Assembly (NCBI GenBank): GCA_034432655.1
Contig: DAOUBP010000162.1
Coordinates: forward strand, 18,827 to 82,826
Length of the DNA: 64,000 nt
Origin: Anaerolineae bacterium
GTDB taxonomy: Bacteria; Chloroflexota; Anaerolineae; CG2-30-64-16
Reading direction: 5' to 3'
Shown here: piece after piece, positions 6,836 through 30,158 of the stretch
Position numbering within the stretch: position 1 is the stretch's first letter
How the letters are laid out: each line of letters opens with the position of its first letter
Notes under the pieces: generated by a model
The model's input: only the letters and a program-made list of their open reading frames with translations
What the model was told of the DNA's origin: nothing
Database searches by the model: none
Position numbers and translations under genes: made by a program

Positions 6836-7819
6836 TTACACCACCGGCCGCGGGTACAACCCCAGCATCTCGCACACCTGCGGCACGGCCGCCGGCCAGC
6901 TCACGGCCATGATGTGGAGGCCGCGCACGCCTTCGATCTCCCGCACCTGGTTGGCGATCTCGCAGCAGATGTCGAGCCCGGCCTTCTGCTGATCTTCCTT
7001 CGACTTCCCTTCCAGCCGCTTGATCACCCAATCCGGCACGTCCATGCCCGCCACTTCGTTCTTCATGTACTCGGCCGCGCGCAGCGAACGCACCGGCCCC
7101 ACCCCGGCCAGGATGACAACTTTCTCGTGCAGTCCCAGGTCCACCACCCGCTTCATGAACTCCCGGAACCGCTCGACGTTGAAGATCAGTTGCGTCTGGA
7201 TGAACTGCGCGCCCGCCACGATCTTCTTCGCCAGCCGATAGGGGCGGTATTCGTACGGCGGCGCAAACGGGTTTTCCACCGCGCCGATGAAAAAGTCGGG
7301 CGCGATCTTGGGGATCGGCTTGCCGTTCTCGAAAACTTGATTGTCGCGCATCATGCGTGCCATGCGGATCAAGTTGATCGAATCCATGTCGTACACCGGC
7401 TTGGCCTGCGGATGATCCCCCCAGATCGGATGGTCGCCGCTCAAGCATAGGATCGTGTTGATGCCGAAGACATACGCGCCCATCATGTCGCCCTGGATCC
7501 CCAGCCGGTTGCGATCGCGACAGGTGAACTGGACCACCGGCTCCATGCCGGCTTGCTTCAGCATGATGCCCACCGCCAGGCTGGAGACATGCACCATGGC
7601 CGATTGGTTATCGGTGACGTTGTACGCGTCGCCGTAGCCCTTCAGGGTCTTGATCTCGCGCTGGATCGCCTCCAGATTCGGGCCAACCGGTGGCGACACT
7701 TCGACGCACACCGGAAAATGCCCTGCCGCAATGACCTTTGCCAGATTGCTGCTCATCCCTTTCAACCCGGTTTGTACCGGAGCGGGTGCCGCAGGCGGAG
7801 TCAGTATAGGTGCGTTCAT
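6836..7819 (-). CDS. metF: Methylenetetrahydrofolate reductase, large subunit
   Basis: VEVSPP, YNVTDNQ, QFTCRDRNRLGIQGD, LCLSGDH, KKIVAGAQFIQTQ; start set at ATG 7819 overlapping the metV stop. Confidence 0.93.
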   Translation of the reverse strand: MNAPILTPPAAPAPVQTGLKGMSSNLAKVIAAGHFPVCVEVSPPVGPNLEAIQREIKTLKGYGDAYNVTDNQSAMVHVSSLAVGIMLKQAGMEPVVQFTCRDRNRLGIQGDMMGAYVFGINTILCLSGDHPIWGDHPQAKPVYDMDSINLIRMARMMRDNQVFENGKPIPKIAPDFFIGAVENPFAPPYEYRPYRLAKKIVAGAQFIQTQLIFNVERFREFMKRVVDLGLHEKVVILAGVGPVRSLRAAEYMKNEVAGMDVPDWVIKRLEGKSKEDQQKAGLDICCEIANQVREIEGVRGLHIMAVSWPAAVPQVCEMLGLYPRPVV

Positions 7820-8322
7820 TTGCCCTCCTGCGGAAGCACTTCGGTCGCATAGCGGATCGTCTTGTCCGAGCCGGTGGTGATCTGATCGCGGCCCAGAGCA
7901 TAGGTGACCCACGATGCCTGGCCTTTGAGCTGCCAGTCCACCGGCGGGTTCAGGCGCAAGATCTCGGCTGCATAGGGTGTCTTCTGGGCACGCTCGATGG
8001 CCTTGACCCATACGCAATCCATCTCCGGTTTGACCTCGCACTTGCCGTCAAGGCGCACGCCTCCGCACGGACCGTTGCGCAGGTTCTTGGGGCAGTTCAT
8101 CGGGCAGGTCATGCCGGTGTAATGCAACACGCACTGTGCGCAATCCTGGCAATTGAAAAGGGCCTTCTTCACGATTTCCTCCGGCACCTTGACAAGCCGT
8201 GAGGAGCGTTCCATGCCCAACTTCTCGAACAGTGGTTTGATCCGCCGCAAAGTCCACGCGGTCGCCTCCCACGCCCAAACAAGAGGGGTGGGGCGGTCTT
8301 GCCAAAAATCTCGTAACGCCAT
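7816..8322 (-). CDS. metV: MTHFR small Fe-S/Zn subunit MetV
   Basis: CQDCAQCVL...CPMNCPKNLRNGPCGG...CEV...CVW; directly upstream of metF. Confidence 0.88.
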   Translation of the reverse strand: MALRDFWQDRPTPLVWAWEATAWTLRRIKPLFEKLGMERSSRLVKVPEEIVKKALFNCQDCAQCVLHYTGMTCPMNCPKNLRNGPCGGVRLDGKCEVKPEMDCVWVKAIERAQKTPYAAEILRLNPPVDWQLKGQASWVTYALGRDQITTGSDKTIRYATEVLPQEGK

Positions 8323-8353
8323 GGTGGATTTCCTTCCGTTGAAGTGCTGAGTT

Positions 8354-8420
8354 GACGAATGACGAGTGACGAATGACGAACGACGAATGACGAACGACGA
8401 ATGACGAATGACGAAGGACG
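8354..8420. repeat. Tandem heptamer array (GACGAAT/C)n
   Basis: About 9 units GACGAAT/GACGAGT/GACGAAC/GACGAAG. Confidence 0.9.
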
Positions 8421-8442
8421 GTGGTTTACCCGATGGCACTCT

Positions 8443-8880
8443 TCAGGCCAGGTCGGCGCCGAAAGGATCGTGTTCTGGCTCGATCGTATACGTTACTTGC
8501 GCTTCACGCAGCCAGGGTTGCTCGGGAACGAGGGTCTTGCGCATGGTATGCAGTTTGGCGACCAGCAATTCGGCATGCTGATAGGCGGCTCGAAGCGCTG
8601 TTTTGTCTTGGATCAGCTTGCGGCGATTGATGATATGCTGACAGGCTACCGATTCAAGCACTGAACGGATCGCCAAACCCAAGAAGCGTGCCTGTTCGGC
8701 ATCAGTTTGACCGGTAGACCCTTCCGCAATGTTGAGCGCCACTGACGTTGCCGCTCTCGTAACCTGCGACTTGAGGTTGTATTCCTCGCTCTTGGGCAGT
8801 TGCGCAGCAATCTGATCTATCAGATCAATATACTCCAACGCCAACCGCCACACCTCAAGCTGCTCGAACTTGAATGGCAT
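8443..8880 (-). CDS. Four-helix-bundle protein (23S rRNA IVP / bAvd-like family)
   Basis: FEQLEVWRLAL, LPKSEEYNLKSQVTRAATSVALNIAEGS, RFLGLAIRSVLE. Confidence 0.92.
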   Translation of the reverse strand: MPFKFEQLEVWRLALEYIDLIDQIAAQLPKSEEYNLKSQVTRAATSVALNIAEGSTGQTDAEQARFLGLAIRSVLESVACQHIINRRKLIQDKTALRAAYQHAELLVAKLHTMRKTLVPEQPWLREAQVTYTIEPEHDPFGADLA

Positions 8881-8990
8881 CTTCGTCCCTCGCCCTTCGT
8901 CTTTCGTCTTTCGTCTTTCGTCCTTCGTCCTTCGTCTTTCGTCCTTCGTCCTTCGTCCCTCGTCCTTCGTCCCTCGTCCTTCGTCCCTCG
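8881..8990. repeat. Tandem heptamer array (TTCGTCC/T)n, inverted relative to the 8354-8420 array
   Basis: About 15 units CTTCGTC/TTTCGTC/CCTCGTC. Confidence 0.9.
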
Positions 8991-8991
8991 T

Positions 8992-9876
8992 CTACGCAAG
9001 GCCATGCTGCAGCTTGAACGCGCGCACCGTATTCGTCAGCAGCATGGCGATCGTCATCGGCCCCACGCCGCCGGGGACGGGGGTGATGTAACTTGCCACC
9101 TCGACCGCCTCGCTGAACGCGACGTCGCCCACCAGGCGGAACCCGCTCTTCTTGGTGGGATCGTCAATTCGATTGATGCCGACATCTATGACCACTGCGC
9201 CGGGCTTGATCCAGTCCCCGCGCACGTACTCAGGCCGGCCGATGGCTGCTACCACGATGTCTCCCCGCCGCACCTTGTCGGGTAGATCGCGCGTCTTGCT
9301 GTGGCAGACGGTGACCGTGGCGTCGGCGTTTTGCAGCAACGCTGCCACCGGCACACCCACGATGTTGCTGCGGCCCACCACCACCGCATCCTTCCCGGCG
9401 ATCTCGATGCCGGAGCGGACGAGCAGCTCGATGCAGCCGGCCGGCGTGCACGGGATGAACTGCGGCGTGCGTCCCTTCATGACCAGTTGGCCGATGTTCA
9501 TCGGATGGAATCCATCCACGTCCTTGTCCAGGCTGATCAGGTCAAGCACGCGCTGTTCGTTCAACCCTTTGGGCAAAGGCAGCTGCACCAGGATGCCGTT
9601 GACGGTCGGGTCGGCGTTGAGGGCGCGCACCAGGTCCTCCAGCTCCGCCTGGCTGATAGTCGCCGGCAGGCGATGGGTGATCGAACCCATGCCGGCCTCT
9701 TCACACGCCTTACCTTTAGAAGCCACATAGGTCTGCGAGGCCGGGTTGTCGCCCACCAGCACGGCCGCCAGGGTCGGCACCTGGCCGGTCAGCGCCTTGA
9801 GCCGGGCCGCTTCGGCCGCGGCCTCCTGGCGCACGGCTTCGGCGATGGCCTTGCCGTCAATAAGTTTCGCTGTCAT
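8992..9876 (-). CDS. folD: Bifunctional methylene-THF dehydrogenase/cyclohydrolase
   Basis: [59 protein letters not shown]. Confidence 0.98.
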
Positions 9877-9972: not shown

Positions 9973-10884
9973 CTAACACTCTTCACACTTTAGCAGGTAC
10001 TCATACGCGTTCAGCGCGGCTTTGGCGCCCTCACCGATGGCGATGACCACCTGCTCGGCCGGCAGATGCGTCACATCGCCGGCCGCGAACAGGCCAGGGA
10101 CGGTGGTCTCGCCGCCGCAGTTCACCACCACGCGGCCCTGTTCGTCCAGGTCGGCCAGCCCTCGTACCAGCTCGCTGTGAGGCCGCAAGCCCAACTCGAC
10201 GAAGATCACGTCCACATCCAGGACGCGTTGGGTCCCATCCGGCGCGCGCACCACCAGCTGCCGCGCGAAGGTGTCCCCTTCCACAGCTACCGGTTCCCAA
10301 TTTTCCAACAACTCCACATGCACCGCCGTCCGGACACGCCGGCCTAACGGTGTATCCAGATCACCGTGCGTCGGAGCTACCAGGTAAAGCCGGTCCACGA
10401 TCTGCATCAGTTCGCCCGCCCCGCGCAGGGCCATGGGGCCAGAACCTACCAGCGCCACCCGCTTGTCAATGTACAGCGGCGCGTAACTGACGGTGGAATA
10501 CGCCACCCCGCGCAGGAAATACCGATCGGCGCCGGGCACATTAAGACGAACGGCATCGGCGCCTGTGGCCAGGATGACGGTACGGCTCTCCAGCTGTTTG
10601 CCACTGGCAGTGGTGACCACAAAACCTTTGGCGGTCTTCTCTAGCCTGGTCACCTTCTCCAACATGCGGGTGAAATCCAGATACTCGATCTCGTTGCGAA
10701 AACGGCGCACCAGGTCGGCTCCGTTGACCACATTGTGCGTGTCCACTCCCTCGACGAGTAGGTGGGCATTGGCCTTGCCGCCCAGGTCAGGGCTGATCAG
10801 CATGCAATTCAGCCGTTTGCGGATGGCATACACGGCTGCAGTCAACCCTGCCGGTCCACCGCCGATGATGATAAGGTCGTACAT
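9973..10884 (-). CDS. Thioredoxin-reductase-like flavoprotein lacking the internal CxxC, with C-terminal CEEC
   Basis: IIGGGPAG and GLFAAGD FAD motifs; RGVAYSTVSY where TrxB has RGVSYCATCD; ends ...LLKCEEC. Confidence 0.85.
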   Translation of the reverse strand: MYDLIIIGGGPAGLTAAVYAIRKRLNCMLISPDLGGKANAHLLVEGVDTHNVVNGADLVRRFRNEIEYLDFTRMLEKVTRLEKTAKGFVVTTASGKQLESRTVILATGADAVRLNVPGADRYFLRGVAYSTVSYAPLYIDKRVALVGSGPMALRGAGELMQIVDRLYLVAPTHGDLDTPLGRRVRTAVHVELLENWEPVAVEGDTFARQLVVRAPDGTQRVLDVDVIFVELGLRPHSELVRGLADLDEQGRVVVNCGGETTVPGLFAAGDVTHLPAEQVVIAIGEGAKAALNAYEYLLKCEEC

Positions 10885-10898
10885 GGTGTGACTCCTTT

Positions 10899-12263
10899 CT
10901 ACTCCGCCGGTGGCTCGGCGATCAACCCTGTCTCCATCATCACTTCCGTCACCTTGCGCGAGCGCAGAATGATTTCCGCGGCATGTTTGAACAGGGTATC
11001 TTCATCAACTTGTAGCCGGGCGATGCCCTGTTCCTGGGCCTTCATGCCGACGGCTACTGCCTCCTGGGCGAACACCTCCCACTCGACCATCGTCGGCAGG
11101 ATGCAGCGCGGATCCATGCCGCCGTCAGGCGCAGCGGCCGCCAACGCCTTGGCAGCCGCAATGCACATTTCATCGGTGATGGTCCGGGCCCGTACATCCA
11201 GGGCCCCGCGGAAGATGCCGGGGAAGCCCAGTGAGTTATTGACCTGGTTCGGAAAATCGGAACGGCCGGTGGCCACGATGCGAGCGCCGGCTGCTTCGGC
11301 CTCCCACGGCCAGATCTCAGGCACCGGATTGGCGCAGGCGAACACGATGGCGTCATCGGCCATGGCGCTGACCCACTCCGGCAAGATGGTGCCTGGCCCT
11401 GGCTTGCTCAAAGCGATACAGACATCTGCCCCGACCAGCGCTTCCGCAATGCCACCTGTCCGGCCCTCCGCGTTGGTCATCTGGCACAGCCGCCATTTGT
11501 CCACGAACTCCGCGCGGCGCATGAAGATATCTTGCCGCTTAGCATGCAGGATGCCCTGGCTGTCCACCACCCGGCATTTCGCCGGATCCACCCCGGCCTT
11601 GAAGCACAATCGCGTAATGGCCACGTTAGAGGCGCCAGAGCCCACGAAAACAATCTGGGCCTCGTTGATCGGCTTGCCCACGATCTTCAAAGCGTTGAGC
11701 AGTCCGGCCAGCGTCACACAGGCGGTCCCTTGCTGATCGTCGTGCCACACCGGGATCTCAGCCTGCTCACGCAAGGTGTCAAGCACGCGGAAGCATTTAG
11801 GCTGCGCAATATCCTCCAAATTAACGCCGCCGAAGGACGGCTGCAGCAGCAGTACCGTGCGGATAATCTCGTCCGGGTCTTTGGTGTCCAACATAATCGG
11901 CACCGCATCCACGCCGCCCAGCCACTTGAACAGCATGGCCTTCCCTTCCATCACAGGCAGGCCTGCTTTCGGGCCGATGTCACCCAGGCCAAGCACCCGG
12001 GTACCGTCCGAGACCACAGCTACGGTGTTCCATTTGTTGGTATACTCGTAGACCAGCTCCGGATCTTTCTGAATGGCGCGGCACGGAGCCGCAACGCCGG
12101 GGGTGTACCAGATGGCGAAATCGTCCAACGAGCGGATGCATCCCTTGGGCACCGTCTCGATCTTGCCACGATAGAAGGGATGCAGCCTCAAGGCATCGGC
12201 CGAGGGCTTTTGCGCTTTGGCCAGCAGCTCCTGGACGTCAGGGACTTCTTTGACTTTGTCCAT
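10899..12263 (-). CDS. NAD(P)-dependent malic enzyme
   Basis: YTPGVA, VVSDGTRVLGLGDIG, PVMEGK, NLEDIAQP, HDDQQGT, FACANPVPE, GRSDFPNQVNN. Confidence 0.95.
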   Translation of the reverse strand: MDKVKEVPDVQELLAKAQKPSADALRLHPFYRGKIETVPKGCIRSLDDFAIWYTPGVAAPCRAIQKDPELVYEYTNKWNTVAVVSDGTRVLGLGDIGPKAGLPVMEGKAMLFKWLGGVDAVPIMLDTKDPDEIIRTVLLLQPSFGGVNLEDIAQPKCFRVLDTLREQAEIPVWHDDQQGTACVTLAGLLNALKIVGKPINEAQIVFVGSGASNVAITRLCFKAGVDPAKCRVVDSQGILHAKRQDIFMRRAEFVDKWRLCQMTNAEGRTGGIAEALVGADVCIALSKPGPGTILPEWVSAMADDAIVFACANPVPEIWPWEAEAAGARIVATGRSDFPNQVNNSLGFPGIFRGALDVRARTITDEMCIAAAKALAAAAPDGGMDPRCILPTMVEWEVFAQEAVAVGMKAQEQGIARLQVDEDTLFKHAAEIILRSRKVTEVMMETGLIAEPPAE

Positions 12264-12344: not shown

Positions 12345-13256
12345 CTACACCCTCAGATACGAGTCCGCGTAGATCACTTTGTTCAGCAAGATTTGGACCG
12401 TCTTCCAGATGGCAACCTGATCGGGATCAGAGAAGTCCACCTTGTCGGGGCTGAGTTCCTCGCCGGCTGCCACCGCATCGTGCAGGGCCAGGACCAGGCG
12501 CCCCACCGGGGTGCTGTCGTCCCGCTGCTCCACGATGCGGATGAACTCCGCCAGTTTGCGATCCAGGGGGTCGGCGATCATCATGTTCAGCCCGGCACCC
12601 ATTAACATGACGCAGTAGACGCGGTTGATCAACGGTCGCATCTCGTTGGGCACTGCGTTGGAGACGTTGCTGAGGCCCACCTGCACCCCGGCCCCGGTCA
12701 CTTGCAGCGTGCGCACCGCTTCGATGCATTCCGGGACATACTCCTGGCAACCGCTGACGGTCAGCACCAGGGGATCAATGATCAGGTCCTCCAGCGGCAG
12801 GCCGACCTCCTCACAGCGCGGGATGAGGTACTCCAGCGCGATGTTCACCCGCTCTTCCGCGCTGACCGGGATGCCCTCGCTTTTCATGGTCAAAGCGATG
12901 AGCTTGGTGTTGTACTTCTTGGCCACCAGCGGCACCTTTTCCAGCCGTTCCGGCTCGGCCGAGGTGGAGTTGATGATGGGCTGCTGTTTGACGATCTCGC
13001 AGGCCGCTTCAATGGCCGCCAGGTTGGTGGTGTCCAGGCTGAGAGGCACATCCACCACCTCTTGCACCGCGCTGACCAGCCAGGGCAAGATCTCATGCCC
13101 TAATTTCTTCTGCGGGCCGATGTTCAGGTCAATGGCCCAGGCGCCCGCCTCGACCTGTTTTACGGCCAGGTCCTGGAAAAACTTGCGATCGCGATTCGCC
13201 AGGGCCTCCTTGACCCTGGGAGAAAGGATGTGGATATTCTCGCCGATGATTTTCAT
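12345..13256 (-). CDS. acsE: Methyl-THF:corrinoid Fe-S protein methyltransferase (pterin-binding TIM barrel)
   Basis: IIGENI, AIDLNIG, LSLDTTN, IINSTS, IIDPLVL, GLSNVS; inside the acs cluster. Confidence 0.88.
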   Translation of the reverse strand: MKIIGENIHILSPRVKEALANRDRKFFQDLAVKQVEAGAWAIDLNIGPQKKLGHEILPWLVSAVQEVVDVPLSLDTTNLAAIEAACEIVKQQPIINSTSAEPERLEKVPLVAKKYNTKLIALTMKSEGIPVSAEERVNIALEYLIPRCEEVGLPLEDLIIDPLVLTVSGCQEYVPECIEAVRTLQVTGAGVQVGLSNVSNAVPNEMRPLINRVYCVMLMGAGLNMMIADPLDRKLAEFIRIVEQRDDSTPVGRLVLALHDAVAAGEELSPDKVDFSDPDQVAIWKTVQILLNKVIYADSYLRV

Positions 13257-13286: not shown

Positions 13287-14075
13287 TCACCCGACATACT
13301 GCAGCGCCTCACGCGCTTCCTTGCGCACCACATAGGCGCGATCCCATTCATATCGCTCATCCTCGCCCAAGATACGGCGCAGGATGGCGCCCAGCTCCCA
13401 ACGCTCGCGCGCAGTCATATGGCCGTGCTTGGCCAGCTTGCCAAGGCTGCGCACCGCCTTGGCCCGGATGCCAGGGCTGGTGTCGGCCAGATTGCGGATC
13501 AACTGTTCCTGGAACCCAAGCCGGATCTCCTCAGGGAGCTGACCGGCCGGGATGGATTCCGCAAATTTGCCGATGGCGCGTGTGGCCGTATCGCGCAACT
13601 CCTGGTCAGGCGAACTGGCGGCCTCCAGAGCAATGTGCGCTGCCTTGACGATCTCCGGCGACTTGATCTTGCCCAGCGCATACAACAGGAAGGCACGGCA
13701 CGAGGGATCCGGACAGGTGGACTCATACTCGGCCAACAAAGGCGCGATAGCCTTGGCGCCCATCCAGCCCAGGGCCTGAGCGATCGCCATCTGGGCCTTG
13801 ACATCACCGGCCTCCAGGCTGGCGATCAGGCTGGGGATCACGGCCTCACCCAGGCTGGCCGTCACCATGATCGCCTCTTCGATAGCCGGTACATGCTCCG
13901 GATGATCCAGCGGATCAATGTAAAACAACGGCAGGATCAACTCGCAAAGACGTTGCGCATCTTCCGGGGTAGCCGTGGGCGTTGCCGCTTTCACCAGTGC
14001 CAGGCCTTGCAGCAACTCGGCCGGGTTGTGACTGGACAACAGCTCTCCTATCCGCCGATAGGTTTCCTCCTGCAT
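13287..14075 (-). CDS. HEAT-repeat protein
   Basis: Repeated AIAQALGWMG, LLYALGKI, ATRAIGKF, AVRSLGKL helical units. Confidence 0.8.
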   Translation of the reverse strand: MQEETYRRIGELLSSHNPAELLQGLALVKAATPTATPEDAQRLCELILPLFYIDPLDHPEHVPAIEEAIMVTASLGEAVIPSLIASLEAGDVKAQMAIAQALGWMGAKAIAPLLAEYESTCPDPSCRAFLLYALGKIKSPEIVKAAHIALEAASSPDQELRDTATRAIGKFAESIPAGQLPEEIRLGFQEQLIRNLADTSPGIRAKAVRSLGKLAKHGHMTARERWELGAILRRILGEDERYEWDRAYVVRKEAREALQYVG

Positions 14076-14099: not shown

Positions 14100-15128
14100 T
14101 CATGCTACCTTGAGCACTTTGGCGCCGCGTATTTTGCGGGCTTTCAGCTCCTGCAAGGCCTGATTTGCTTCTTCCAGGGCATACACTTGAACCTCGGGGA
14201 CGATTGGGATCTCGGCAGCGAGGGCCAGGAACTCAGAAACATCCTGGCGGGTCACATTAGCCACACTGACGATCTCTTTCTCCTGCCACAAATGAACCGG
14301 ATAATCCAGGTTCATGAGATAGTGTTTGTCCCCCTCCTCCTTGCGGATGGCGTTGATGACCAGGCGGCCGCCCGGGGCGAGGTTGCGGAGCGCCTCGACG
14401 ATCGGCTTCCAGACCGGCGTAGTGTCAATGATGGCATGCAACGGCCGGGGCGCCGTATCTGCGGTATCCCCCGCCCACACCGCCCCCAGCTCACGGGCAA
14501 ACGCCTGCTCGGCCGGGGTGCGGGTGAAGACAAAGACCTGGACGTCGGGGTAACGATGACGCACCATCTTCAACACCAGGTGGGCCGAAGCCCCAAAACC
14601 GGTCAATCCCAGATTCTGGCCGTTGCGCAACCCGCTCAACCGCACCGAACGGTAGCCGATAGCGCCGGCGCACAGCAAAGGTGCGGCCTGGACATCGGTG
14701 AAGACCGCCGGAATCGGCAGCGCAAAGGCGGCCGGCACGACCATCAACTCTGCATAGCCGCCGTGGGCATCGCGGCCGGTGGCCCGAAACTGCGGGCACA
14801 GGTTTTCCCGGCCGGAGGCACAAAACTCGCAGGCGCCGCAAGCAGAGTAAATCCAGGCTACCCCTACCCGGTCCCCTTCACGAAAGCCGGAGACGCCGGG
14901 CCCCAGCGCGGCCACACGGCCGACAACCTGGTGCCCCGGAATCACAGGCAAGACGGGCGGCGGTGTGCGGCCCTCGATCTCATCCAACTCGGTATGGCAC
15001 ACCCCGCAGGCCGCGACCCGCACCAGGATTTCGCCTGGTCCAGGGGTCGGGTCGGGCCACACCACGGGTTGCAGAGGTTGGGGCTCCTCTTCAAGCCGAC
15101 AAAGCCGGGTAAGCACCAGCGCGCGCAT
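14100..15128 (-). CDS. Zinc-dependent alcohol dehydrogenase family protein
   Basis: CGVCHTE, PGHQVVG, CGACEFCASGRENLC, LLCAGAIGY, GFGASAH. Confidence 0.93.
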   Translation of the reverse strand: MRALVLTRLCRLEEEPQPLQPVVWPDPTPGPGEILVRVAACGVCHTELDEIEGRTPPPVLPVIPGHQVVGRVAALGPGVSGFREGDRVGVAWIYSACGACEFCASGRENLCPQFRATGRDAHGGYAELMVVPAAFALPIPAVFTDVQAAPLLCAGAIGYRSVRLSGLRNGQNLGLTGFGASAHLVLKMVRHRYPDVQVFVFTRTPAEQAFARELGAVWAGDTADTAPRPLHAIIDTTPVWKPIVEALRNLAPGGRLVINAIRKEEGDKHYLMNLDYPVHLWQEKEIVSVANVTRQDVSEFLALAAEIPIVPEVQVYALEEANQALQELKARKIRGAKVLKVA

Positions 15129-16495: not shown

Positions 16496-16512
16496 GAGCC
16501 CTCCTCCTTCCC

Positions 16513-18537: not shown

Positions 18538-18554
18538 GATCGGGTTTGTCACCA

Positions 18555-22503: not shown

Positions 22504-23475
22504 TTATCCCGCCATGAGCTCGGCGATCATCTTTTTCACCCGAGCCACAGCCTGCGGGTGGCGCATCACCACGATGTCAGCGCCGGACTGGATCAGGGCC
22601 GCGGCGGTCAGGGCCTCCCAGTTGATCGCGCGTTCAACCCAATCGCCCCAAGCAGCCGGAACGCCATCGCCTGCGCGGGCTTCCTTAGTGCGCCACGCCT
22701 CTTCACCGGGGGTGACGATCATCGGTTGCTGGGTCATGCCGTCGCCCTGCAAAGCTGCCAGCCGCAGACGTTCCATGACGCTGTAGCCGTACTCGATACC
22801 GTAGCCCAACGCGCCGGTGGTCGGGTCGGTGATGATGCGATCCAGGGGCATCCCCATATCGTGGATCAAAATCGTGAGCTGTTTGGACAGGTTGACATCC
22901 ATGGGCGTCTTGGCCGTGACCAGATGGCCGTTGGCCAGTGCGGCCGCCACAATGGTGCGGTAGTTCTTGTCCTCGCACGCGCCGAGGGCCAGCCGTTCGC
23001 CAGCGCCCTCTTCTGCACAGGCCACCAGGATTTCGTTGTCCAACTCAGCCTGGCCGGGGCCCAGTACGATCAAGGGCAGGCCGGTTGCGCCCAAGACGGC
23101 GCGCAAAACCTGACGCGCTACAGCGCCGGTCATCCGATTGCCGGCCGCGTCCACCGTTGCAAAACGCAACGCGATCAGGTCGGCGCCGGCGTCCTCGGCT
23201 GCGCGGGCCCAGGCCGCCGGATCATCCAACACGGCGCCCCAGGCCGATGTCAAGGGAGCCGGCCACTCCTCGTTTGGGTTGCGATTCCACACCTCAACCG
23301 CCACCCGCGGCGGATTGCCGGTCGAACCCTCGAACGATAAAAACGGCAGGGTGGTATGCCCCCCCACTTGCACGACCGCGCGCCGTGTGCCGCCGTCGGC
23401 CGCGGTCGCGCCTAAAGTGACCAGGCGGATACTGCCTGCCCACTTCTCGACAGGAACTTCAACAGTTACAGGCAT
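22504..23475 (-). CDS. acsD: Corrinoid Fe-S protein small (delta) subunit
   Basis: VGGHTTLPF, CEDKNY, TPMDVNLSKQL, DPTTGALGYGIEYGYSVMERLR, SGADIVVMRHP. Confidence 0.95.
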   Translation of the reverse strand: MPVTVEVPVEKWAGSIRLVTLGATAADGGTRRAVVQVGGHTTLPFLSFEGSTGNPPRVAVEVWNRNPNEEWPAPLTSAWGAVLDDPAAWARAAEDAGADLIALRFATVDAAGNRMTGAVARQVLRAVLGATGLPLIVLGPGQAELDNEILVACAEEGAGERLALGACEDKNYRTIVAAALANGHLVTAKTPMDVNLSKQLTILIHDMGMPLDRIITDPTTGALGYGIEYGYSVMERLRLAALQGDGMTQQPMIVTPGEEAWRTKEARAGDGVPAAWGDWVERAINWEALTAAALIQSGADIVVMRHPQAVARVKKMIAELMAG

Positions 23476-23643: not shown

Positions 23644-24459
23644 TCACCAATAGCGCTCCACATGAATCTGTCCCGCTTCTCGTTTGGTGTTTTCCTTGAA
23701 GCCTTCCTGCTGGAGCATGGCCACCGCACTGTCAATCATCGCTGGACTGCCGCACAGGAAGATGTGCGTGTTTTCGGGCGTGGGCTTGAACCCCCATGCC
23801 TGTTCGATAACCCCGCGCTGCCACAAGTCCTGCACATAGCCTGTGTGGCCTGTCCAGGGAGTCGGCTCGCCTTGTGGCCGACTGATGACCGGGACATAAG
23901 CGAAGTTGCGACATAAATGCTGCAGTGTCATCAACTCAGAACGATACCCCAGATCCCACGAATGGCGTGCGCCGTGCAATACTGCGAAGCGGCGAGCACC
24001 ACCGCACACCAAGTGAGTGGTCAGCATGCTCATGTACGGCGCCAGGCCGGTGCCGGTGGCGATCATTACCACATTTTGATCTTCGGGCACCTGGTCGAAG
24101 GTGAACATGCCGGTAATCTTCGGGGAAAGCCAAAGCCGGTCGCCGATATTCAACGCAAACAGCCGCGGGGTCAACGCACCGGTGGTCACCAGCGCGATAT
24201 AAAACTCCAGATATTCTTTGAGGAGCGAAGACGAAGCGATGGAATAGGCCCGCCGGATGAGCTTGTGCGGGTCAGGCGGAGTTTCATCCGGCTCGGCCAG
24301 GGCGCAGCGCGGGGCGGAACCCGGCAGGCCCAGGACGGCGAACTGGCCGGGGATGAAATCGGGAAGCTGCCAGCCATCAGGTGCTACGCGCAGGATGATC
24401 AACCAAGGGGATATCTCGGTACGTAGAGTAACAACAGCGTTCAAAACAGGTTCAGGCAC
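23644..24459 (-). CDS. fpr: Ferredoxin/flavodoxin-NADP+ reductase (Fpr-type FNR)
   Basis: FIPGQFAVLGL, RRAYSIAS, GALTPRL, IATGTGLAPY, HGARHSWDLGY, FLCGSPAMI, ends ERYW. Confidence 0.88.
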   Translation of the reverse strand: MPEPVLNAVVTLRTEISPWLIILRVAPDGWQLPDFIPGQFAVLGLPGSAPRCALAEPDETPPDPHKLIRRAYSIASSSLLKEYLEFYIALVTTGALTPRLFALNIGDRLWLSPKITGMFTFDQVPEDQNVVMIATGTGLAPYMSMLTTHLVCGGARRFAVLHGARHSWDLGYRSELMTLQHLCRNFAYVPVISRPQGEPTPWTGHTGYVQDLWQRGVIEQAWGFKPTPENTHIFLCGSPAMIDSAVAMLQQEGFKENTKREAGQIHVERYW

Positions 24460-24546: not shown

Positions 24547-25044
24547 TCACCGTTTTCCCGCCAGACCGTAGCGCTGACGAAACAGATCCATCGGCGTCGG
24601 CCGCGCAGCGTGCATCCCTTGATGCCGGATGTATTCGGGCCCTGCCAGCGCCCTGACCACATCGCGCAGGCTGAGCATGGACGCCGGCCAGGAGCGGCCA
24701 CCGGCATGATGCATGAAAAAGATGTGATCAACGTTCATGTCGGCCATCAGTTGCACGATTGCCGTCAGCGGCAAGTCGGCCGCGGCCTCGGGCACGTGCT
24801 CCGCCATGACGTCAGCGGCAGCAAGGGGGGAAGCACCGGCGGGCAGCGTCGCCAGGCGGACGTAGCCCTGGGCCAGCATCTGCTCGTTGACCCAACCGCG
24901 CGCATCCCCATCATCGTCCAGCACCACCACCGCTGTCCAACCATGCTCCACCATCTGTGCTGCCAGCCGGTCAAGCGGTTCTGTCGGCTTGCAAGTGGGC
25001 ACGCCGATGCGCATCACGTCACGAACAAGGAGAGGGGAAGACAT
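24547..25044 (-). CDS. CBS domain pair protein
   Basis: VRDVMRIGVPTC, VVVLDDDG, ADVMAEHVP, MLSLRDVVRAL. Confidence 0.82.
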   Translation of the reverse strand: MSSPLLVRDVMRIGVPTCKPTEPLDRLAAQMVEHGWTAVVVLDDDGDARGWVNEQMLAQGYVRLATLPAGASPLAAADVMAEHVPEAAADLPLTAIVQLMADMNVDHIFFMHHAGGRSWPASMLSLRDVVRALAGPEYIRHQGMHAARPTPMDLFRQRYGLAGKR

Positions 25045-25061
25045 GGGCAACATATCATTGC

Positions 25062-25144
25062 GACAAACGACGAAAGACGAAAGACGAAAGACGAAAGACG
25101 AAAGACCAAACCGTCCTTCGTCCTTCGTCGTTCGTCCTTTGTCA
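25062..25144. repeat. Head-to-head heptamer arrays (GACGAAA)n-(TTCGTCC)n with no enclosed gene
   Basis: GACGAAA x5 plus variants, then TTCGTCC TTCGTCG TTCGTCC TTTGTCA. Confidence 0.9.
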
Positions 25145-25148
25145 TTGA

Positions 25149-27428
25149 TTAGAAAATCGGATCCATCATCAACGCCGGATGGCCGACCGCTTCCAGATGG
25201 GCCAACAGCCCGTCCACATCGGTGCAGATCGTCTCATCGGCGATCTTGCTGATCAGGTCGGGATCGCCTTCCCGCTCGGCCACCTTCTGGAGTTCCTCGG
25301 CCATGGTCTGCTTCAGGATGCTGGACATCCAGACGACGCGCTTGAAGCCGCCGTCGGCCGAGATGAACTTGGGGCTGGTCAGGTAATACTTGCCCACGCC
25401 CATCACGCCCGGGGTCTGCAGGCCGCCGCCGGCCATGCCGGCCAGGGTCGAGAACGTCATGCCGGCCGGGGTCATGCTGGGATCTTCGCGGCTCACCACC
25501 ATCACGCCGTTGGCTTCAGGGATCAGCATCACGATGCACTCGAAGCAACCGCAGGCCGTCATCGGGCTGGTCATGATGGAGTACATGGCCACCTCTTGCA
25601 CGGTGCCGTTCGACTTCTGTTGGGCGATCTCGTTGAGGCCGGCGTAGATGCCTTTCTCGCGGTCAATCACCATCCCTTTGCGCACCGGCTGGTTCGGCCC
25701 GGTCGGATTAATCTGGTAGGACGCGGCGCAGTCCAGGTAGTTGTATGCGCCACACAGGCCCAGCCGCTGTGGGCTGACCAGACACACATGGGTCGGCGCG
25801 AAGGACTGGCACAGCGTGCAGGTGTAGAACTCCTCCACCGCTTCATCGGTCAGGTCGGCCAGGCGGCGATTACGGTAGTCGTAGGCCTCACGCGCCTTCT
25901 GCAGCCACTCGGCATGCAGCGCCGGGTCGGTGATGAGCTTGACCTGTACCTTGTCCACAATTGCGCCGAAATCCGCCATGAAGCGAGCGTGCAGAATATC
26001 GCCGAAGTGTTTGAGGGTAAAGCCCTTGTCGGCCGCCGCCTTGCTGATCCGGATCCAGGTGATGTCGCGCTGACCGATGTGCTGGATGCCGCTGGCCCCG
26101 TTGATGAAGTAGTGGATTTGGCGTTCCAGCACCGGCTCGAAGTCCTTCTGCATCTTCCGGCCGGCCACTTCCACCAGGATGCCCAGGTCCATGGCGCCGC
26201 CCACCGGCACATCTTCGAAACCGGGGCCGATCACCTCGATCTTGCCGTCCTCCACCTGATCCATGTCCACCATGCGCAGGTACTCGAACGCGCGGCTGTA
26301 CTTACCGCCGAACTCGACGCGCATGTCGGCCTTGCGCACTACTTCGCCCTCAAACGCGGAACCGTAAGGCACCGGGATCGGTACTTCGGTCAGCTTGATC
26401 TTGACCCCGCGGGTCTCGATGCACTTCTGGACCAGCTTCTCGGCCCGCTCCAGATCGTCCTTGCCTTCGATCTCGTTGAATGGCATGGAGATGACATGCT
26501 CATAGGTGGTGACGCCGGTAGGCAAGATCTGCGGGATGCGGGTATCAGCGATGACCGGGAAGCCGTAGTTGATGGCGCCGGCCGCGGCCGCATACTTCAG
26601 ATCATCCACTTCGCCCAGCGCCAACACAAACGCGAACACGCGCGCCCGGTTGTACAAGAGGATTTCCTTGGCCTGGCCGCCTTTCAGGCCGCCGAAAGTC
26701 AGCGCAGAACGGGTGGCGAAGCCGATGGGGTAAATGGCCGAGAGGGTGTCCAGGCCGAACGGCACGATGTACGTGTCATAGCCCATCTCCACGCCCTCTT
26801 CCATCAGCTGATGGATCACCGAGCGGCCGTTCACGTTGCCGCACAGGAAGATCAGGATGTTACGCCGCTGCAGCTCGCGCACAATCTTGACCGCCACCTC
26901 GTTGCTCTTGGCGCAGCCGACGATGGCTGCGAAGCCCGGCATGCGGCCATCTACCAGCTGGATGCCCCAAGCGCGCAGCTGGACGTCATCAATCGGGCCG
27001 TTCAACCGGCCATTGCCGTCCCCTGCTTCGCCATCAGGGCTGGTGAAGCTGCCGCCCGTCATGCGCAAACCGGGCAGCCGGCCCGGTTCCTCGCCATACA
27101 CAAAGCGGATCGCCTCGATGGTCTCGGCGGCCAGCAACGTCGCAATGCCACAGTCCAACGTCTCGCCCAGATAGGGGGTCCAGCATTGGGTGGTGGGCAC
27201 GGGATGCAGCAAGTCCCTGGCGTGCTCCAAGACGGGCTTCAGTTGACCCAGCTTGCTGACTTCGCGGCCGGTCAGGCCCAGAATGGTCGGCAGGTAATAG
27301 GCAGTGTTCGGAAAAGCGACCGGGGTTTCGGGACCTTTTTCACGGAGCGCCTTTTCCAACAGCGCCTCAGCCTCGGCCACAATCAAGTTTGCGCCGCGGA
27401 TGGCACGGGTAGCGATGTAACGTGACAT
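25149..27428 (-). CDS. acsB: Acetyl-CoA synthase (bacterial-type, A-cluster)
   Basis: FPNTAYYLP, ERQIHYFIN, YTCTLCQSFAPTHVC, GLCGA, MTACGCFEC. Confidence 0.97.
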   Translation of the reverse strand: MSRYIATRAIRGANLIVAEAEALLEKALREKGPETPVAFPNTAYYLPTILGLTGREVSKLGQLKPVLEHARDLLHPVPTTQCWTPYLGETLDCGIATLLAAETIEAIRFVYGEEPGRLPGLRMTGGSFTSPDGEAGDGNGRLNGPIDDVQLRAWGIQLVDGRMPGFAAIVGCAKSNEVAVKIVRELQRRNILIFLCGNVNGRSVIHQLMEEGVEMGYDTYIVPFGLDTLSAIYPIGFATRSALTFGGLKGGQAKEILLYNRARVFAFVLALGEVDDLKYAAAAGAINYGFPVIADTRIPQILPTGVTTYEHVISMPFNEIEGKDDLERAEKLVQKCIETRGVKIKLTEVPIPVPYGSAFEGEVVRKADMRVEFGGKYSRAFEYLRMVDMDQVEDGKIEVIGPGFEDVPVGGAMDLGILVEVAGRKMQKDFEPVLERQIHYFINGASGIQHIGQRDITWIRISKAAADKGFTLKHFGDILHARFMADFGAIVDKVQVKLITDPALHAEWLQKAREAYDYRNRRLADLTDEAVEEFYTCTLCQSFAPTHVCLVSPQRLGLCGAYNYLDCAASYQINPTGPNQPVRKGMVIDREKGIYAGLNEIAQQKSNGTVQEVAMYSIMTSPMTACGCFECIVMLIPEANGVMVVSREDPSMTPAGMTFSTLAGMAGGGLQTPGVMGVGKYYLTSPKFISADGGFKRVVWMSSILKQTMAEELQKVAEREGDPDLISKIADETICTDVDGLLAHLEAVGHPALMMDPIF

Positions 27429-27464
27429 GTAAAATGCCTCCCTTGCTTGCTACAACATCTAGCT

Positions 27465-27535: not shown

Positions 27536-29524
27536 TTATCCGTACAACTCCGCCATCTGCTCTTCCAGCGGCTCCTCCAGGAATACCTGGATCGGCACAT
27601 CGCCGGAGGCACCGAAACGAGAAGGATCATAAGGCGGCAGCTTGAGCGCAGCGCGTTTCTTGTCAATGTGTTCCAGTGTGCGGCGGACGATCTCATCCGC
27701 TTCGGTTACAAACTCCAGCTTGCCACCGAAGCGCTCTTCCCACTCCTGGGACAGGATATGGGAAACCGTATCGGAGAACTCCACCGGATTGCGCACGCCC
27801 ATGATCACATATGCCCCGGAGCCGACACAGTAAGTCGCAATGGCCAACGCTTTCTCGCTCATCCATTCGGGTGCCAGGCCCACGGCGGGGATGTCACTGA
27901 TGTCATCGCCCAGGCCCCCTTCCGTGGCCATCTGGCTCAATACCGTGAGGATGCGGCTGTTATCCACGCAGGAACCCAGGTGCAGCACGGGCGGGATGCC
28001 GATGGCCTCGCACACCTCGCGCAGGCCAGGCCCGACCTTTTCAGGATCGAGAGCGGTCGAGCCCTTAAGATAACCGTATTTGCCCGCCGCAATCGCGCCG
28101 CAGCCGGTGCTGACCACCAGCACGTCGTTCTTCAACAGCTGCGTCACCACGTCCATATGGACCTGGTCCTGGGTCAATGCCGGGTTGTTGCAGCCCACAT
28201 CGGCGGCCACCCCGCGGATGCGGCCGGCTGCAATGGCATCGTTCAGCGGCCGGAAGGAGGCGCGGTAACTGCCGCCCTGCATGTAGGCCAGATACTCGTG
28301 GCTGAAACCGGGCACCACATCCTCGTAGATGTTCTGGGGGATGCGCGTCTCCCCGCGGTTGACATAGTTGTCGCAGGCACGGCGCACGATACTCTTGGCA
28401 ATATCCAGCGCCCGGTGTTCGTCGAACTCAATATGCGTTGCGCCGGTGATCCTGACCTTGGGGCTAGTGGTGATGATCTCGGTGTGGAAGTGCTTCGCCA
28501 CATCGGTCAACGATTGCATAATGCACTGCACATCCACCACCATTGCCTCTACCGCGCCCGTGAGGATGGCCAGCTCCTGATTGAGGAAGTTGCCGGCCGA
28601 GGGGATCCCCTGGCGCATCATCACTTCGTTGGAGGTGCAGCAGATGCCGGCCAGGTTGATGCCTTTGGCCCCTTTGCTCTTCGCATATTCCAGCAGCTCT
28701 GGATCCTGGACAGCCGCCACGATCATCTCACTGAGGGTGGGCTCATGGCCGTGGACGATGATGTTCACCTCATCATCCTTCAAGCATCCCAGGTTCACCC
28801 GGCCTACCTTTGGGCTGGGTGTGCCGAACAGGATATCGGAGATATCGGTGGCCCACATCGAGCCGCCCCAACCATCGGCCAATGCCGTGCGCACCGCGGC
28901 CAACAGGATATGGCTGGCGTCCTGGTCATCGCCCATGTGGGTGCGATGGAGGATCTCTACCACTTCGCGGTCAATGCCGCGGGGGACCACCTTCTGATCG
29001 CGCCAGATCTTCTGGCGTTTCGGCGGTGCGATCGAGATATAGCTCAGCTCCCCGCGCTGTTGGCCGAACTCGCTGATGGCCTTATTCGCAACATCCAGGG
29101 CGATCTCCTTGATCGTGCGGCCCTTGGTGGGGATGTTGTGTTTGGCAGCCACAGCGAGAAGCTTGGCCTCATCGCGGATCTCATAACCCTGTGCTTCGCC
29201 CTTGGCCACGGCCTGGAGCGTAAAAGCCAGATCGCGGCCGTGATCTGAGTGAGCCGCCGCGCCGGCCGCAATGGCACGCGCCAGGTTACGTGCGGCGATG
29301 GTCTCCAGGGTGGCGCCGCAAATGCCTACCTGTCCGTCCTTGGTGATACGGCAGGGCCCCATATAGCAGTTCTTGCAGCACACGCCCGCCTGTCCACTGC
29401 CGATAGTGCAGGGCTTATGCTCCGCCGCACGACTGAACGAGGTCGGGATGCCCATCGCGGTCGCAAAATCCAAGACATAGCACGCGGCGGGGTCAATCGT
29501 CGGAACGATCTTTTGCTTAGCCAT
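27536..29524 (-). CDS. cooS: Anaerobic Ni-CO dehydrogenase catalytic subunit (CooS/AcsA)
   Basis: CCKNCYMGPC (B cluster); C-cluster ligand motifs HGHEP, ICCTSNE, DVQC, GCNN, TGCG, GSCVD; MSEKA. Confidence 0.97.
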   Translation of the reverse strand: MAKQKIVPTIDPAACYVLDFATAMGIPTSFSRAAEHKPCTIGSGQAGVCCKNCYMGPCRITKDGQVGICGATLETIAARNLARAIAAGAAAHSDHGRDLAFTLQAVAKGEAQGYEIRDEAKLLAVAAKHNIPTKGRTIKEIALDVANKAISEFGQQRGELSYISIAPPKRQKIWRDQKVVPRGIDREVVEILHRTHMGDDQDASHILLAAVRTALADGWGGSMWATDISDILFGTPSPKVGRVNLGCLKDDEVNIIVHGHEPTLSEMIVAAVQDPELLEYAKSKGAKGINLAGICCTSNEVMMRQGIPSAGNFLNQELAILTGAVEAMVVDVQCIMQSLTDVAKHFHTEIITTSPKVRITGATHIEFDEHRALDIAKSIVRRACDNYVNRGETRIPQNIYEDVVPGFSHEYLAYMQGGSYRASFRPLNDAIAAGRIRGVAADVGCNNPALTQDQVHMDVVTQLLKNDVLVVSTGCGAIAAGKYGYLKGSTALDPEKVGPGLREVCEAIGIPPVLHLGSCVDNSRILTVLSQMATEGGLGDDISDIPAVGLAPEWMSEKALAIATYCVGSGAYVIMGVRNPVEFSDTVSHILSQEWEERFGGKLEFVTEADEIVRRTLEHIDKKRAALKLPPYDPSRFGASGDVPIQVFLEEPLEEQMAELYG

Positions 29525-29537
29525 AACTCAGCCTCCT

Positions 29538-30158
29538 TTATGATTTCTTGGCATCCCGCGGGTCAGTGCGGGTCTGGCGGAACCCCAAGCGATCCCATGC
29601 CGGATCTTTGCGGCCATCCTGCACAGGCACGGGCTGGGCGATCACCCCGCTGCCATCTGTGGCAACAGGATAGCCGGCCTCCTCCAGGGCCGCCATGAGG
29701 GCGCCAGGACTGACGACTGCCGGATCGTACGAAATGACAACCATACGGAAGGCGGAGCTGGCAATGACGTCTTGGACCCCGGGTGTGTTGGTCAGGACGT
29801 CTCGCACCTTCAGCGTGTGGTGATCTGCCCATAGGTTTGGCACATTGAATTGAACTTTTTCGACCACAGACCTGCCTCCTTGGGGTGAACTGAGATAGCG
29901 GACTGATTCGGGCGCCGCAGACCCCGGCGCAGCTTGTGCAATTGCCAGGATCTCGCGGCGATGCTCAAGATAGATTTGGCAAAAATCGCATGAAACGTGC
30001 AGGGGTGCACAACAACAGGCTTCCCCTCGACACTGCTCCCAACACGACAAACCGGAGTCGAGCAACAGACACTCGGCACAGGTGAATGACCAGCCGTCAT
30101 GCTTGCCGTTGCCTGTCTGGTGTAACAGGTCCTGCCTGATTTGCCAACACGTCCGCAC
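29538..30158 (-). CDS. Cys-rich (two CW motifs) domain in frame with a His-type HMA-like domain; alternative GTG start at 29867 gives the HMA domain alone
   Basis: HMA fold pattern VQFNVPNLWADHHTLKVRDVL...PGVQDVIAS...ISYDP...LEEAGY; RBS GGAGG 7 nt before GTG 29867; N-terminal 60 aa hold 10 Cys. Confidence 0.65.
   Translation of the reverse strand: MRTCWQIRQDLLHQTGNGKHDGWSFTCAECLLLDSGLSCWEQCRGEACCCAPLHVSCDFCQIYLEHRREILAIAQAAPGSAAPESVRYLSSPQGGRSVVEKVQFNVPNLWADHHTLKVRDVLTNTPGVQDVIASSAFRMVVISYDPAVVSPGALMAALEEAGYPVATDGSGVIAQPVPVQDGRKDPAWDRLGFRQTRTDPRDAKKS

Follow-up and report, generated by a model that had tools for sequence, protein, structure and literature searches.

NfnAB and an Fpr-type reductase hold constant positions within the acs gene cluster of a clade of Anaerolineae

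We analyzed a 64,000-nucleotide stretch of DNA (the window; positions 18,827 to 82,826 of contig DAOUBP010000162.1, assembly GCA_034432655.1) from an Anaerolineae bacterium of the Chloroflexota, and in it the gene cluster for the Wood-Ljungdahl pathway, here called the acs cluster. The cluster is an unbroken chain of 21 open reading frames (ORFs) of ∼23.3 kb (6836-30158), all on the minus strand, in the order HMA(DHH)-cooS-acsB-CBS-Fpr/FNR-acsD-acsC-nfnA-nfnB-RACo(acsV)-GNAT-cooC-ADH-HEAT-acsE-malic enzyme-TrxR-like-folD-IVS-metV-metF, where FNR stands for a ferredoxin/flavodoxin-NADP+ reductase and ADH for an alcohol dehydrogenase. Two flavoenzymes encoded among the pathway genes, NfnAB and the Fpr-type FNR, are our main subject: they keep their positions throughout a clade of Anaerolineae, and it is plausible that through them the pathway is coupled to the pools of NADP(H), NAD(H), and ferredoxin.

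Gene identities were obtained from Pfam and NCBIfam profile matches scored against the curated NCBIfam cutoffs (Table 1). These cutoffs were exceeded by CooS, AcsB, AcsC, AcsD, and FolD, while AcsE and AcsV, although the top-scoring models for their genes, stay under the strict cutoffs. CooS and AcsB are accompanied by both subunits of the corrinoid iron-sulfur protein (CoFeSP), AcsE, RACo/AcsV, and CooC, as in a carbon monoxide dehydrogenase/acetyl-CoA synthase (CODH/ACS) cluster; cooF is missing from the cluster. The adjacent MetV (DUF5981) and MetF (MTHFR TIM barrel) genes, with no hdr, mvhD, or rnfC in the window, represent a MetVF-type reductase. Intergenic gaps range from -4 to 168 nt once start codons are refined from N-terminal sequences, and nfnA/nfnB, RACo/GNAT, and metV/metF overlap by 1 to 4 nt. 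A preliminary description of this DNA had named the acs, coo, met, and folD genes on one strand, together with genes for FNR, NfnAB, malic enzyme, a Zn-dependent ADH, and a TrxB-like protein, and the Pfam and NCBIfam matches bear all of these out; the chain holds five genes beyond that list (HMA-like, CBS-pair, GNAT, HEAT-repeat, and 23S-IVS-type). It was also correct that fhs, formate dehydrogenase, hydrogenase, rnf/ech, and hdr/mvh genes are absent from the window, as a domain scan of the window ORFs found none of them in the 64 kb.

The gene pair between acsC and the RACo gene encodes a bona fide member of the NfnAB family, for which bifurcating transhydrogenase activity is predicted. Members of this family pair a PyrK-like small subunit, which has a [2Fe-2S] motif and binds flavin adenine dinucleotide (FAD), with a GltD-like large subunit that contains two [4Fe-4S] clusters and FAD as well, and here two adjacent genes encode full-length homologues of both subunits of characterized NfnAB enzymes. 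NfnB aligns over its full length with Thermotoga maritima NfnB (4ylf_B) at 575 bits, and NfnA matches Pyrococcus furiosus NfnI (5jca_S) at 321 bits and T. maritima NfnA at 277 bits, with the cluster-binding motif DGTGMCG.CRV aligning with that of P. furiosus NfnI. The FNR can be assigned by its motifs to the Escherichia coli Fpr subclass. It carries the RxYS FAD motif, the GTGxAP motif of the NADP domain, and a C-terminal aromatic residue for flavin stacking, seen in the alignment with 3fpk as RAYS, ATGTGLAP, and a C terminus reading ERYW versus EHYW, and both the E. coli and Salmonella Fpr proteins were matched. The NCBIfam Fpr model gives only 108 bits versus a cutoff of 390, which makes the protein a divergent member of this group.

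For comparison we used 46 loci from species-representative genomes, searched by tblastn with all cluster proteins, and a tree of RACo. The window and ten other loci form a clade with 100% support in the Shimodaira-Hasegawa-like approximate likelihood ratio test (SH-aLRT), and two further loci with partial RACo matches share the gene order. In every clade locus covering the interval from acsC to RACo, NfnAB is found there (10/10 relatives and the window), an arrangement that takes one change on the RACo tree, and Fpr occupies the junction of the CBS gene with acsD wherever a clade locus covers it (7/7 relatives and the window, 8/8). RACo has diverged to about 69% identity among the species in which both are fixed. 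The clade also shares GNAT (most loci), HEAT (all loci covering its position), and folD. More distant Anaerolineae show the plain order cooS-acsB-(CBS)-acsD-acsC-RACo-acsE-metVF, with the CBS-pair gene at the same acsB/acsD junction in many of them. When 20 of these distant genomes were searched in full, none (0/20) had NfnAB in the acs cluster: 16 held solely an unpaired NfnB-like gene of ∼40% identity, 3 held an NfnAB pair 58 to 60% identical elsewhere in the genome, and 1 gave no NfnAB match at the threshold used. In the genome of the window, NfnA, NfnB, Fpr, FolD, malic enzyme, and MetV are all single-copy, with no paralogue. The 43 nearest RACo loci all come from metagenome-assembled genomes (MAGs) of Chloroflexota, most of them labeled Anaerolineae or Anaerolineales (82 to 54% identity), followed by Gaiellales and Actinomycetes at 37 to 38%, and the names of the relatives' MAGs suggest anaerobic reactors and stratified waters as their sources.

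The closest precedent is found in Moorella, where nfnAB (Moth_1518, Moth_1517; PMC4320612) adjoins an NADP-specific folD (Moth_1516; PMC5736913). The two organisms, this one and Moorella thermoacetica, share a genetic linkage of bona fide NfnAB to the NADP-dependent FolD of the pathway, with the same role of interconverting NADH plus reduced ferredoxin and 2 NADPH. Unlike in Moorella, nfnAB here sits between the carbonyl-branch genes acsC and RACo, with folD and metVF in the same unit, and the organism has no hdr beside metVF but does have terminal oxidase homologues. The Moorella nfnAB-folD genes reportedly stand apart from the acs cluster, and Moorella is said to use an Hdr-MvhD-linked MetVF and Ech. 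Genes of both the carbonyl and the methyl branch (acsV/RACo, cooC, folD, metVF, acsDCEB) likewise form one long same-strand cluster with embedded flavoproteins in Clostridium ljungdahlii and C. autoethanogenum, where it comprises ∼15 genes and reportedly includes lpdA and gcvH as extras. The cluster described here differs in its order, in the embedded NfnAB, Fpr, CBS, GNAT, HEAT, and malic enzyme/TrxR-like genes, and in that fhs lies elsewhere in the genome. Clostridial nfn is one fused gene (PMC4600107). CooS-CooF-FNOR clusters, too, encode a pyridine-nucleotide-linked flavoprotein next to Ni-CODH (PMC6344411), suggesting coupling between CO/CO2 and NAD(P)H, but FNOR (COG1251) is a single protein found with CooF and a stand-alone CODH, whereas here a two-subunit NfnAB is part of an ACS-type cluster without cooF. 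In the literature searched, neither an acs cluster containing nfnAB nor the malic enzyme/TrxR-like pair discussed below is described, an absence that is no proof of novelty. We class the cluster as a variant, specific to this clade, of the bacterial acs operon already known; it does not amount to a new system.

Table 1. Genes and sequence features of the acs cluster and its borders, listed in the direction of transcription
Feature	Coordinates	Strand	Evidence or remark
Rho-independent terminator of the upstream GAF-kinase/ANTAR-regulator unit; 5' limit of the acs unit	30290..30340	-	aacgcctgcccg..cgggcaggcgtt then T-run; GC stem
Leader of the acs unit with small terminator-like hairpin (30188-30206)	30160..30289	-	terminator-like site
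HMA-like protein, first gene of the unit	29538..30158	-	weak HMA match, E 1.4e-4; LWADHH replaces the usual CxxC
cooS, Ni-CODH catalytic subunit	27536..29524	-	Prismane 532 bits; TIGR01702 582 bits (cutoff 478)
acsB, acetyl-CoA synthase	25149..27428	-	NF040764 961 bits (cutoff 800)
Inverted heptamer arrays (GACGAAG)n/(CTTTCGT)n, ∼33-bp stem, acsB/CBS gap	25054..25148	-	-51.5 kcal/mol, z -7.9
CBS-pair protein	24547..25053	-	domain match
Fpr-type ferredoxin/flavodoxin-NADP+ reductase (FNR)	23644..24459	-	NAD_binding_1; best PDB matches 3fpk, 1fdr
acsD, CoFeSP small subunit	22504..23475	-	NF003376 360 bits (cutoff 280)
acsC, CoFeSP large subunit	21114..22481	-	NF003195 557 bits (cutoff 306)
nfnA, NfnAB small subunit	20132..21034	-	PRK06222 409 bits
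nfnB, NfnAB large subunit; 1-nt overlap with nfnA	18684..20132	-	TIGR01316 593 bits
RACo/acsV, ATP-dependent reductive activator of CoFeSP	16513..18555	-	Fer2, linker, middle, and ASKHA domains; best NCBIfam match AcsV, 582 bits
GNAT acetyltransferase; 4-nt overlap with RACo	15914..16516	-	domain match
cooC-type Ni-insertion ATPase	15139..15900	-	CbiA family; P-loop; CxC motif GQGCYCAANH
Zn-dependent alcohol dehydrogenase family protein (ADH)	14100..15128	-	TIGR02822 287.5 bits (cutoff 283.5)
HEAT-repeat protein	13287..14075	-	domain match
acsE, methyltetrahydrofolate:CoFeSP methyltransferase	12345..13256	-	Pterin_bind
Archaeal-type small malic enzyme	10899..12263	-	456 bits to P. horikoshii 1ww8
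TrxR/AhpF-fold flavoprotein, SxxS for CxxC	9973..10884	-	motif alignments
folD	8992..9876	-	NF010785 404 bits, above cutoff
23S-IVS-type four-helix-bundle gene (8443-8880) in repeat-flanked cassette	8353..8992	-	Pfam; repeat arrays
metV	7816..8322	-	DUF5981
metF; start overlaps metV stop as ATGA	6836..7819	-	MTHFR
Perfect ∼24-bp hairpin just 3' of the metF stop, facing a convergent peroxiredoxin gene	6760..6815	-	-60.8 kcal/mol, z -6.9

Other genes of the chain are less constant. ADH was present in 5 of the 10 loci of relatives that cover the cooC-HEAT junction and is patchy within the clade. The IVS gene was found only in the window, between folD and metV, and in locus L056, where it occupies another junction (acsE/folD). 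It is flanked by complementary heptamer arrays (TGACGAA repeated 9.7 times and CTTCGTC repeated 16 times) and is an inserted cassette that behaves like a mobile one, not a part of the pathway. A close relative (L020) carries a HigA-like antidote gene between acsB and the CBS gene and genes for an RHH antitoxin and a PIN toxin between acsC and nfnA (toxin-antitoxin coordinates L020:1925-2821 and L020:6726-7393). At the other end of the unit, the HMA-fold protein with ADHH in place of CxxC may be a metal-handling partner of Ni-CODH, and HMA-like homologues lie directly before cooS in the more distant Anaerolineae loci L027 and L044-L046. In one distant Anaerolineae locus (L028), MetV and MetF are fused into a single 546-amino-acid protein (L028:12922-14562) that is only 35 to 39% identical to the split MetV/MetF of the clade (6836-8322 in the window), while the other acs proteins are 55 to 77% identical; from these identities, either a replacement or rapid divergence of the methyl-branch reductase seems to have taken place. 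The idea of a contrast with distant Anaerolineae having Hdr/MvhD beside MetVF was dropped, as none was found in L028, where the fused gene is followed by unrelated genes. Searched against the PDB, MetF of the window matched just distant classical MetF proteins (≤56 bits), and there is no solved MetVF for typing.

The malic enzyme gene and the TrxR-like gene that follows it have a history of their own. The malic enzyme has the malic N-terminal and NAD(P)-binding domains and is a full-length homologue of 1ww8, and a flavoprotein gene lies directly downstream of it in 19/19 Anaerolineae genomes with an orthologue (42 to 79% identity), near acs or not. The pairing was followed through loci L098-L116 (Anaerolineae) and L128-L134 (metagenomic) alongside the window pair (9973-12263); it persists in metagenomic contigs down to ∼40% identity, and two examined representatives were without it. 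In most genomes searched the pair is away from acs, in some lineages it is beside acsE, and to explain its linkage to acsE or metF, the RACo tree requires five or more changes. The L129 pair comes after genes for a SatP/YaaH-type acetate permease and an AMP-forming acetyl-CoA synthetase. Malic enzyme and TrxR-like protein are an autonomous two-gene module that is found repeatedly beside acetyl-CoA-producing genes. In L100, from the same genome as L025, folD and malic enzyme each appeared as two adjacent or overlapping tblastn pieces, which may reflect a frameshift or an indel error of a long-read MAG.

The TrxR-like protein shares its two-domain fold, its FAD motifs (GGGPAG, FAAGDVT), and a C-terminal helix with TrxR/AhpF, and its best PDB matches are AhpF and TrxR (152 to 142 bits). 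The redox CxxC in the pyridine-nucleotide domain by which low-Mr TrxR/AhpF proteins are recognized is missing: in the alignment, GVTYCPHCDGPLF in AhpF stands against GVAYSTVSYAPLY in the TrxR-like protein, so that YCPHCD becomes YSTVSY. SxxS is present in 19/19 orthologues and HRRxxxR in none, and the score against TIGR01292 is 211 bits for a cutoff of 343. We therefore rejected this protein as a true TrxB/AhpF because of the missing CxxC, and its assignment as a YumC-type ferredoxin-NADP reductase is unsupported (∼70 bits versus 140 to 150 for AhpF/TrxR). The GxGxxA motif is retained in the window protein (GSGPMA) and in most of the wider clade, while roughly half of the orthologues from distant Anaerolineae vary at its second Gly. 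A family-wide loss of this nucleotide motif, which we had considered, was weakened by a wider survey of 1.84 billion representative proteins clustered at 50% identity, which showed the motif mostly retained. About 60 of the top 150 matches, an estimate read off the alignment, fall in a YSxxS clade with a GxGxxA-L-R signature, and canonical CxxC proteins score lower. Public annotation calls these proteins "thioredoxin reductase" or "AhpF", which is misleading for SxxS flavoproteins.

It is a reasonable idea that the flavoprotein might connect the NAD(P)H of malic enzyme to a low-potential carrier, and the pair could then serve the reductive carboxylation of pyruvate that pyruvate:ferredoxin oxidoreductase (PFOR) makes from acetyl-CoA; alternatively, malic enzyme could oxidize malate and supply NADPH. 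A bolder and rather improbable extension would make malic enzyme and the SxxS flavoprotein a so far unrecognized two-component enzyme system that links the nicotinamide cofactor of the enzyme to ferredoxin or flavodoxin, letting either acetyl-CoA-derived pyruvate be turned into malate or malate oxidation yield low-potential electrons. Together with NfnAB and Fpr, the operon would then lead self-sufficiently from CO2 to C4 compounds, electron wiring included, in an organism without Rnf, and this would explain the repeated settling of the pair beside acetyl-CoA-producing genes. The pairing is the most original element of the analysis, although a side result.

These data bear on the proposal, made in the preliminary description, that the cluster is a module with its own redox balancing whose embedded redox genes should be conserved together with acs. 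Such co-conservation is seen for NfnAB and Fpr, which are both fixed in the clade with NfnAB in single copy, and an exchange of NADP(H), NAD(H), and ferredoxin built into the pathway is a reasonable reading. It does not extend to ADH, found in only about half of the clade loci (5/10), nor to the malic enzyme/TrxR-like pair, an independent module with at least five changes of linkage, and the TrxB-like protein, which lacks both the redox CxxC and HRRxxxR, is at most a putative NAD(P)H/ferredoxin balancer.

We read the acs cluster most likely as one long transcription unit, perhaps attenuated after acsB, judging from its layout. The unit is preceded by a terminator of the upstream genes, and the hairpin at 6760-6815 is likely its 3' end. 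The acsB/CBS hairpin is the sole intergenic terminator-like site inside the cluster, and terminator-like and promoter-like matches inside the cluster were not commoner than in shuffled sequence. Heptamer tandem repeats, often in inverted pairs, occupy several intercistronic gaps (25054-25148, 27429-27537, 12264-12346, 23496-23547, 21087-21111, and 9903-9932), with predicted folding energies of -45.7 kcal/mol for cooS/acsB, -51.5 kcal/mol for acsB/CBS, and -45.8 kcal/mol for acsE/malic enzyme. Such period-7 arrays number 11 in 23.6 kb of the cluster and 629 in the 4.43 Mb of the genome, that is, 4.7 versus 1.4 per 10 kb, making them ∼3.3 times denser in the cluster. The heptamer hairpins could stabilize, process, or attenuate the polycistronic RNA.

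Directly upstream and on the same strand lie genes for a GAF-histidine kinase (HisKA_2) and a REC-ANTAR regulator (30290-32212) that resemble the PdtaS/PdtaR type, and a paralogous pair is present on contig C110. On the other side of the oxygen-sensitive operon are a peroxide-defense gene for a 1-Cys-type peroxiredoxin (5845-6501) and, also near, genes for a DUF3786 protein and an acyl-CoA dehydrogenase (2448-6501). Together with these, the rest of the window carries housekeeping genes unrelated to the pathway, among them those for RuvB, QueA, sugar and cell-envelope functions, ComEC, and others.

The assembly (4.43 Mb, 98.6% complete) supplies the parts of the pathway that are missing from the window, so that the pathway is complete. 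A search of the genome for fhs, fdh, rnf, and hdr, suggested by the preliminary description, gave one fhs gene, two formate dehydrogenase (FDH) alpha subunits above the cutoff, one of them with an in-frame TGA, and MvhD with an HdrA-like protein; it gave no Rnf, as no RnfD/NqrB homologue was found in the genome. There are four NiFe hydrogenase loci, two of them membrane-type, and one region of contig C90 (25000-55000) combines a NuoE-NuoF-(Fe-S/HdrA-like)-MvhD-MvhG-MvhA module, a selenocysteine FdhA-NuoF-NuoE module, and a group-3b-like (sulfhydrogenase-like) hydrogenase. The beta subunit of the latter is fused to a response-regulator/histidine-kinase protein, and an HdrA-like ORF (C90:33408-33995) ends right after an FPTLDCS motif. 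The genome further encodes two complex I loci, three heme-copper oxidase subunit I homologues, a 1253-amino-acid PFOR and other 2-oxoacid:ferredoxin oxidoreductases, and an ADP-forming acetyl-CoA synthetase above the cutoff; no acetate kinase was found in the genome. Judged by this inventory, the organism is no acetogen of the classical Rnf or Ech type and resembles a facultative respirer whose NAD(P)-linked modules for H2 and formate are soluble. Acetyl-CoA oxidation, CO2 fixation, and a role as electron sink are all compatible with these genes, among which genome data by themselves cannot decide the direction.

We favor, with some reservation, the explanation that the ancestor of this clade built NfnAB and Fpr (and folD) into its acs cluster and that its descendants kept them there, so that the pathway is coupled to the pools of NADP(H), NAD(H), and ferredoxin. 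Such coupling is plausible because NfnAB and Fpr are fixed in the clade, NfnAB is the only Nfn of the genome, and distant Anaerolineae mostly lack the NfnAB pair. In the ancestor of this family-level clade, Fpr would have been placed after the CBS gene of a plain Anaerolineae cluster, NfnAB between acsC and RACo, and folD before metVF, and all three insertions would have been retained since. CODH/ACS would work with ferredoxin, as is established for its family, while FolD, and possibly a formate dehydrogenase, would work with NADP(H); FolD carries the Arg of the GRS motif, which we take to be typical of NADP-dependent FolD. The MetVF-type reductase would take reduced ferredoxin, which MetVF accepts in vitro (PMC8760232, PMC8515935). 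NfnAB would then exchange 2 NADPH for NADH and reduced ferredoxin, in either direction and with the energy conserved, and Fpr would join ferredoxin or flavodoxin to NADPH by an uncoupled route, unless its task is instead to feed RACo. Expressed together with the pathway, these enzymes would keep the three pools of electrons in step with its flux in an organism without Rnf. The malic enzyme/TrxR-like module would be separate from this redox logic, and ADH, the IVS cassette, and the heptamer hairpins would be accessory to it.

Several observations weigh against this explanation. NfnAB, FolD, and malic enzyme are the only copies in the genome and must therefore also serve general metabolism, so that they are not dedicated to the pathway. 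The strong hairpins at cooS/acsB, acsB/CBS, and acsE/malic enzyme (-46 to -52 kcal/mol) could split or attenuate the unit, and co-transcription is inferred from gene spacing alone, as are, by inference too, the cofactors preferred by FolD, MetVF, malic enzyme, and the FDHs. The acs cluster also takes up toxin-antitoxin modules in a relative and the IVS cassette here, which means that insertion into it can evidently be neutral; since the cluster collects selfish inserts, embedding alone is weak evidence of function. All of the embedded genes, namely NfnAB, Fpr, malic enzyme with its TrxR-like partner, ADH, GNAT, and HEAT, could accordingly be housekeeping or hitchhiking genes gathered at a permissive, highly expressed site. 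The RHH-PIN and HigA-like genes at the acsC/nfnA and acsB/CBS junctions of relatives, the IVS cassette at different junctions here and in L056, the patchiness of ADH, the part-time linkage of the malic enzyme pair to acs, the sole genome copies of NfnAB, malic enzyme, and FolD, and the roughly threefold density of period-7 arrays would all be expected from such neutral accretion. We nevertheless consider it unlikely for NfnAB and Fpr, because selfish inserts differ by species whereas these two occupy constant junctions in all covering clade loci down to ∼69% RACo identity, because both are biochemically apt for the ferredoxin- and NADP-dependent steps of the pathway, and because Moorella provides an independent precedent. 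It is persistence at a fixed position, and not embedding alone, that counts as evidence of function.

Two other alternatives accept a function for the embedded genes and differ on what it is. Fpr could serve corrinoid repair, passing electrons from NADPH, directly or via flavodoxin or ferredoxin, to the [2Fe-2S] cluster of RACo and so driving the ATP-dependent re-reduction of Co(II) CoFeSP. E. coli Fpr with flavodoxin reactivates the cobalamin-dependent methionine synthase, and the Fpr of the cluster belongs to that subclass, is encoded directly before acsD/acsC for the corrinoid protein, and shares a unit with RACo; the three heme-copper oxidase homologues and the flanking peroxiredoxin genes would also make oxidative inactivation of the corrinoid likely. 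Yet the cluster has no flavodoxin gene and more distant Anaerolineae have RACo without Fpr, and we regard this as the least probable of the functions considered. A stronger contender, possible but still short of an even chance, is that the pathway runs oxidatively, from acetyl-CoA or methyl groups to CO2, with FolD making NADPH, NfnAB bifurcating its electrons to NADH and reduced ferredoxin, and these passing on to hydrogenases, FDHs, or the respiratory chain. The two complex I loci, the two membrane-type NiFe hydrogenases, and the heme-copper oxidase homologues would suit this direction, as would a reversible ADP-forming acetyl-CoA synthetase where acetate kinase is missing. NfnAB-bearing Anaerolineae have also been proposed to be syntrophic acetate oxidizers that use the reverse pathway, with NfnAB invoked for the re-oxidation of NADPH (10.1101/2021.07.06.451242). 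However, the uptake hydrogenases, MvhADG with the HdrA-like protein and NuoEF, the group-3b-like hydrogenase, the selenocysteine FDH with NuoEF, and PFOR would also suit an electron sink, or CO2 fixation driven by H2 or formate, and the ADP-forming acetyl-CoA synthetase has been proposed to be the acetate-forming enzyme of acetogenic Chloroflexi too (PMC3971608).

The malic enzyme/TrxR-like by-product of this analysis may matter more than the acs cluster itself, being a widespread, misannotated, cysteine-less flavoprotein that is almost always encoded directly after malic enzyme, which points to the SxxS flavoprotein as a so far uncharacterized partner of a central metabolic enzyme. For the acs clusters of Anaerolineae, nfnAB between acsC and RACo provides a simple genomic marker that sorts them into two types. 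How the Wood-Ljungdahl pathway of non-acetogens is supplied with low-potential electrons, and in which direction it runs, matters for the reading of MAGs, especially those without Rnf, and a clade with its sole NfnAB and its Fpr fixed inside the acs operon offers a clear, testable case of NADPH-centered wiring of this pathway.

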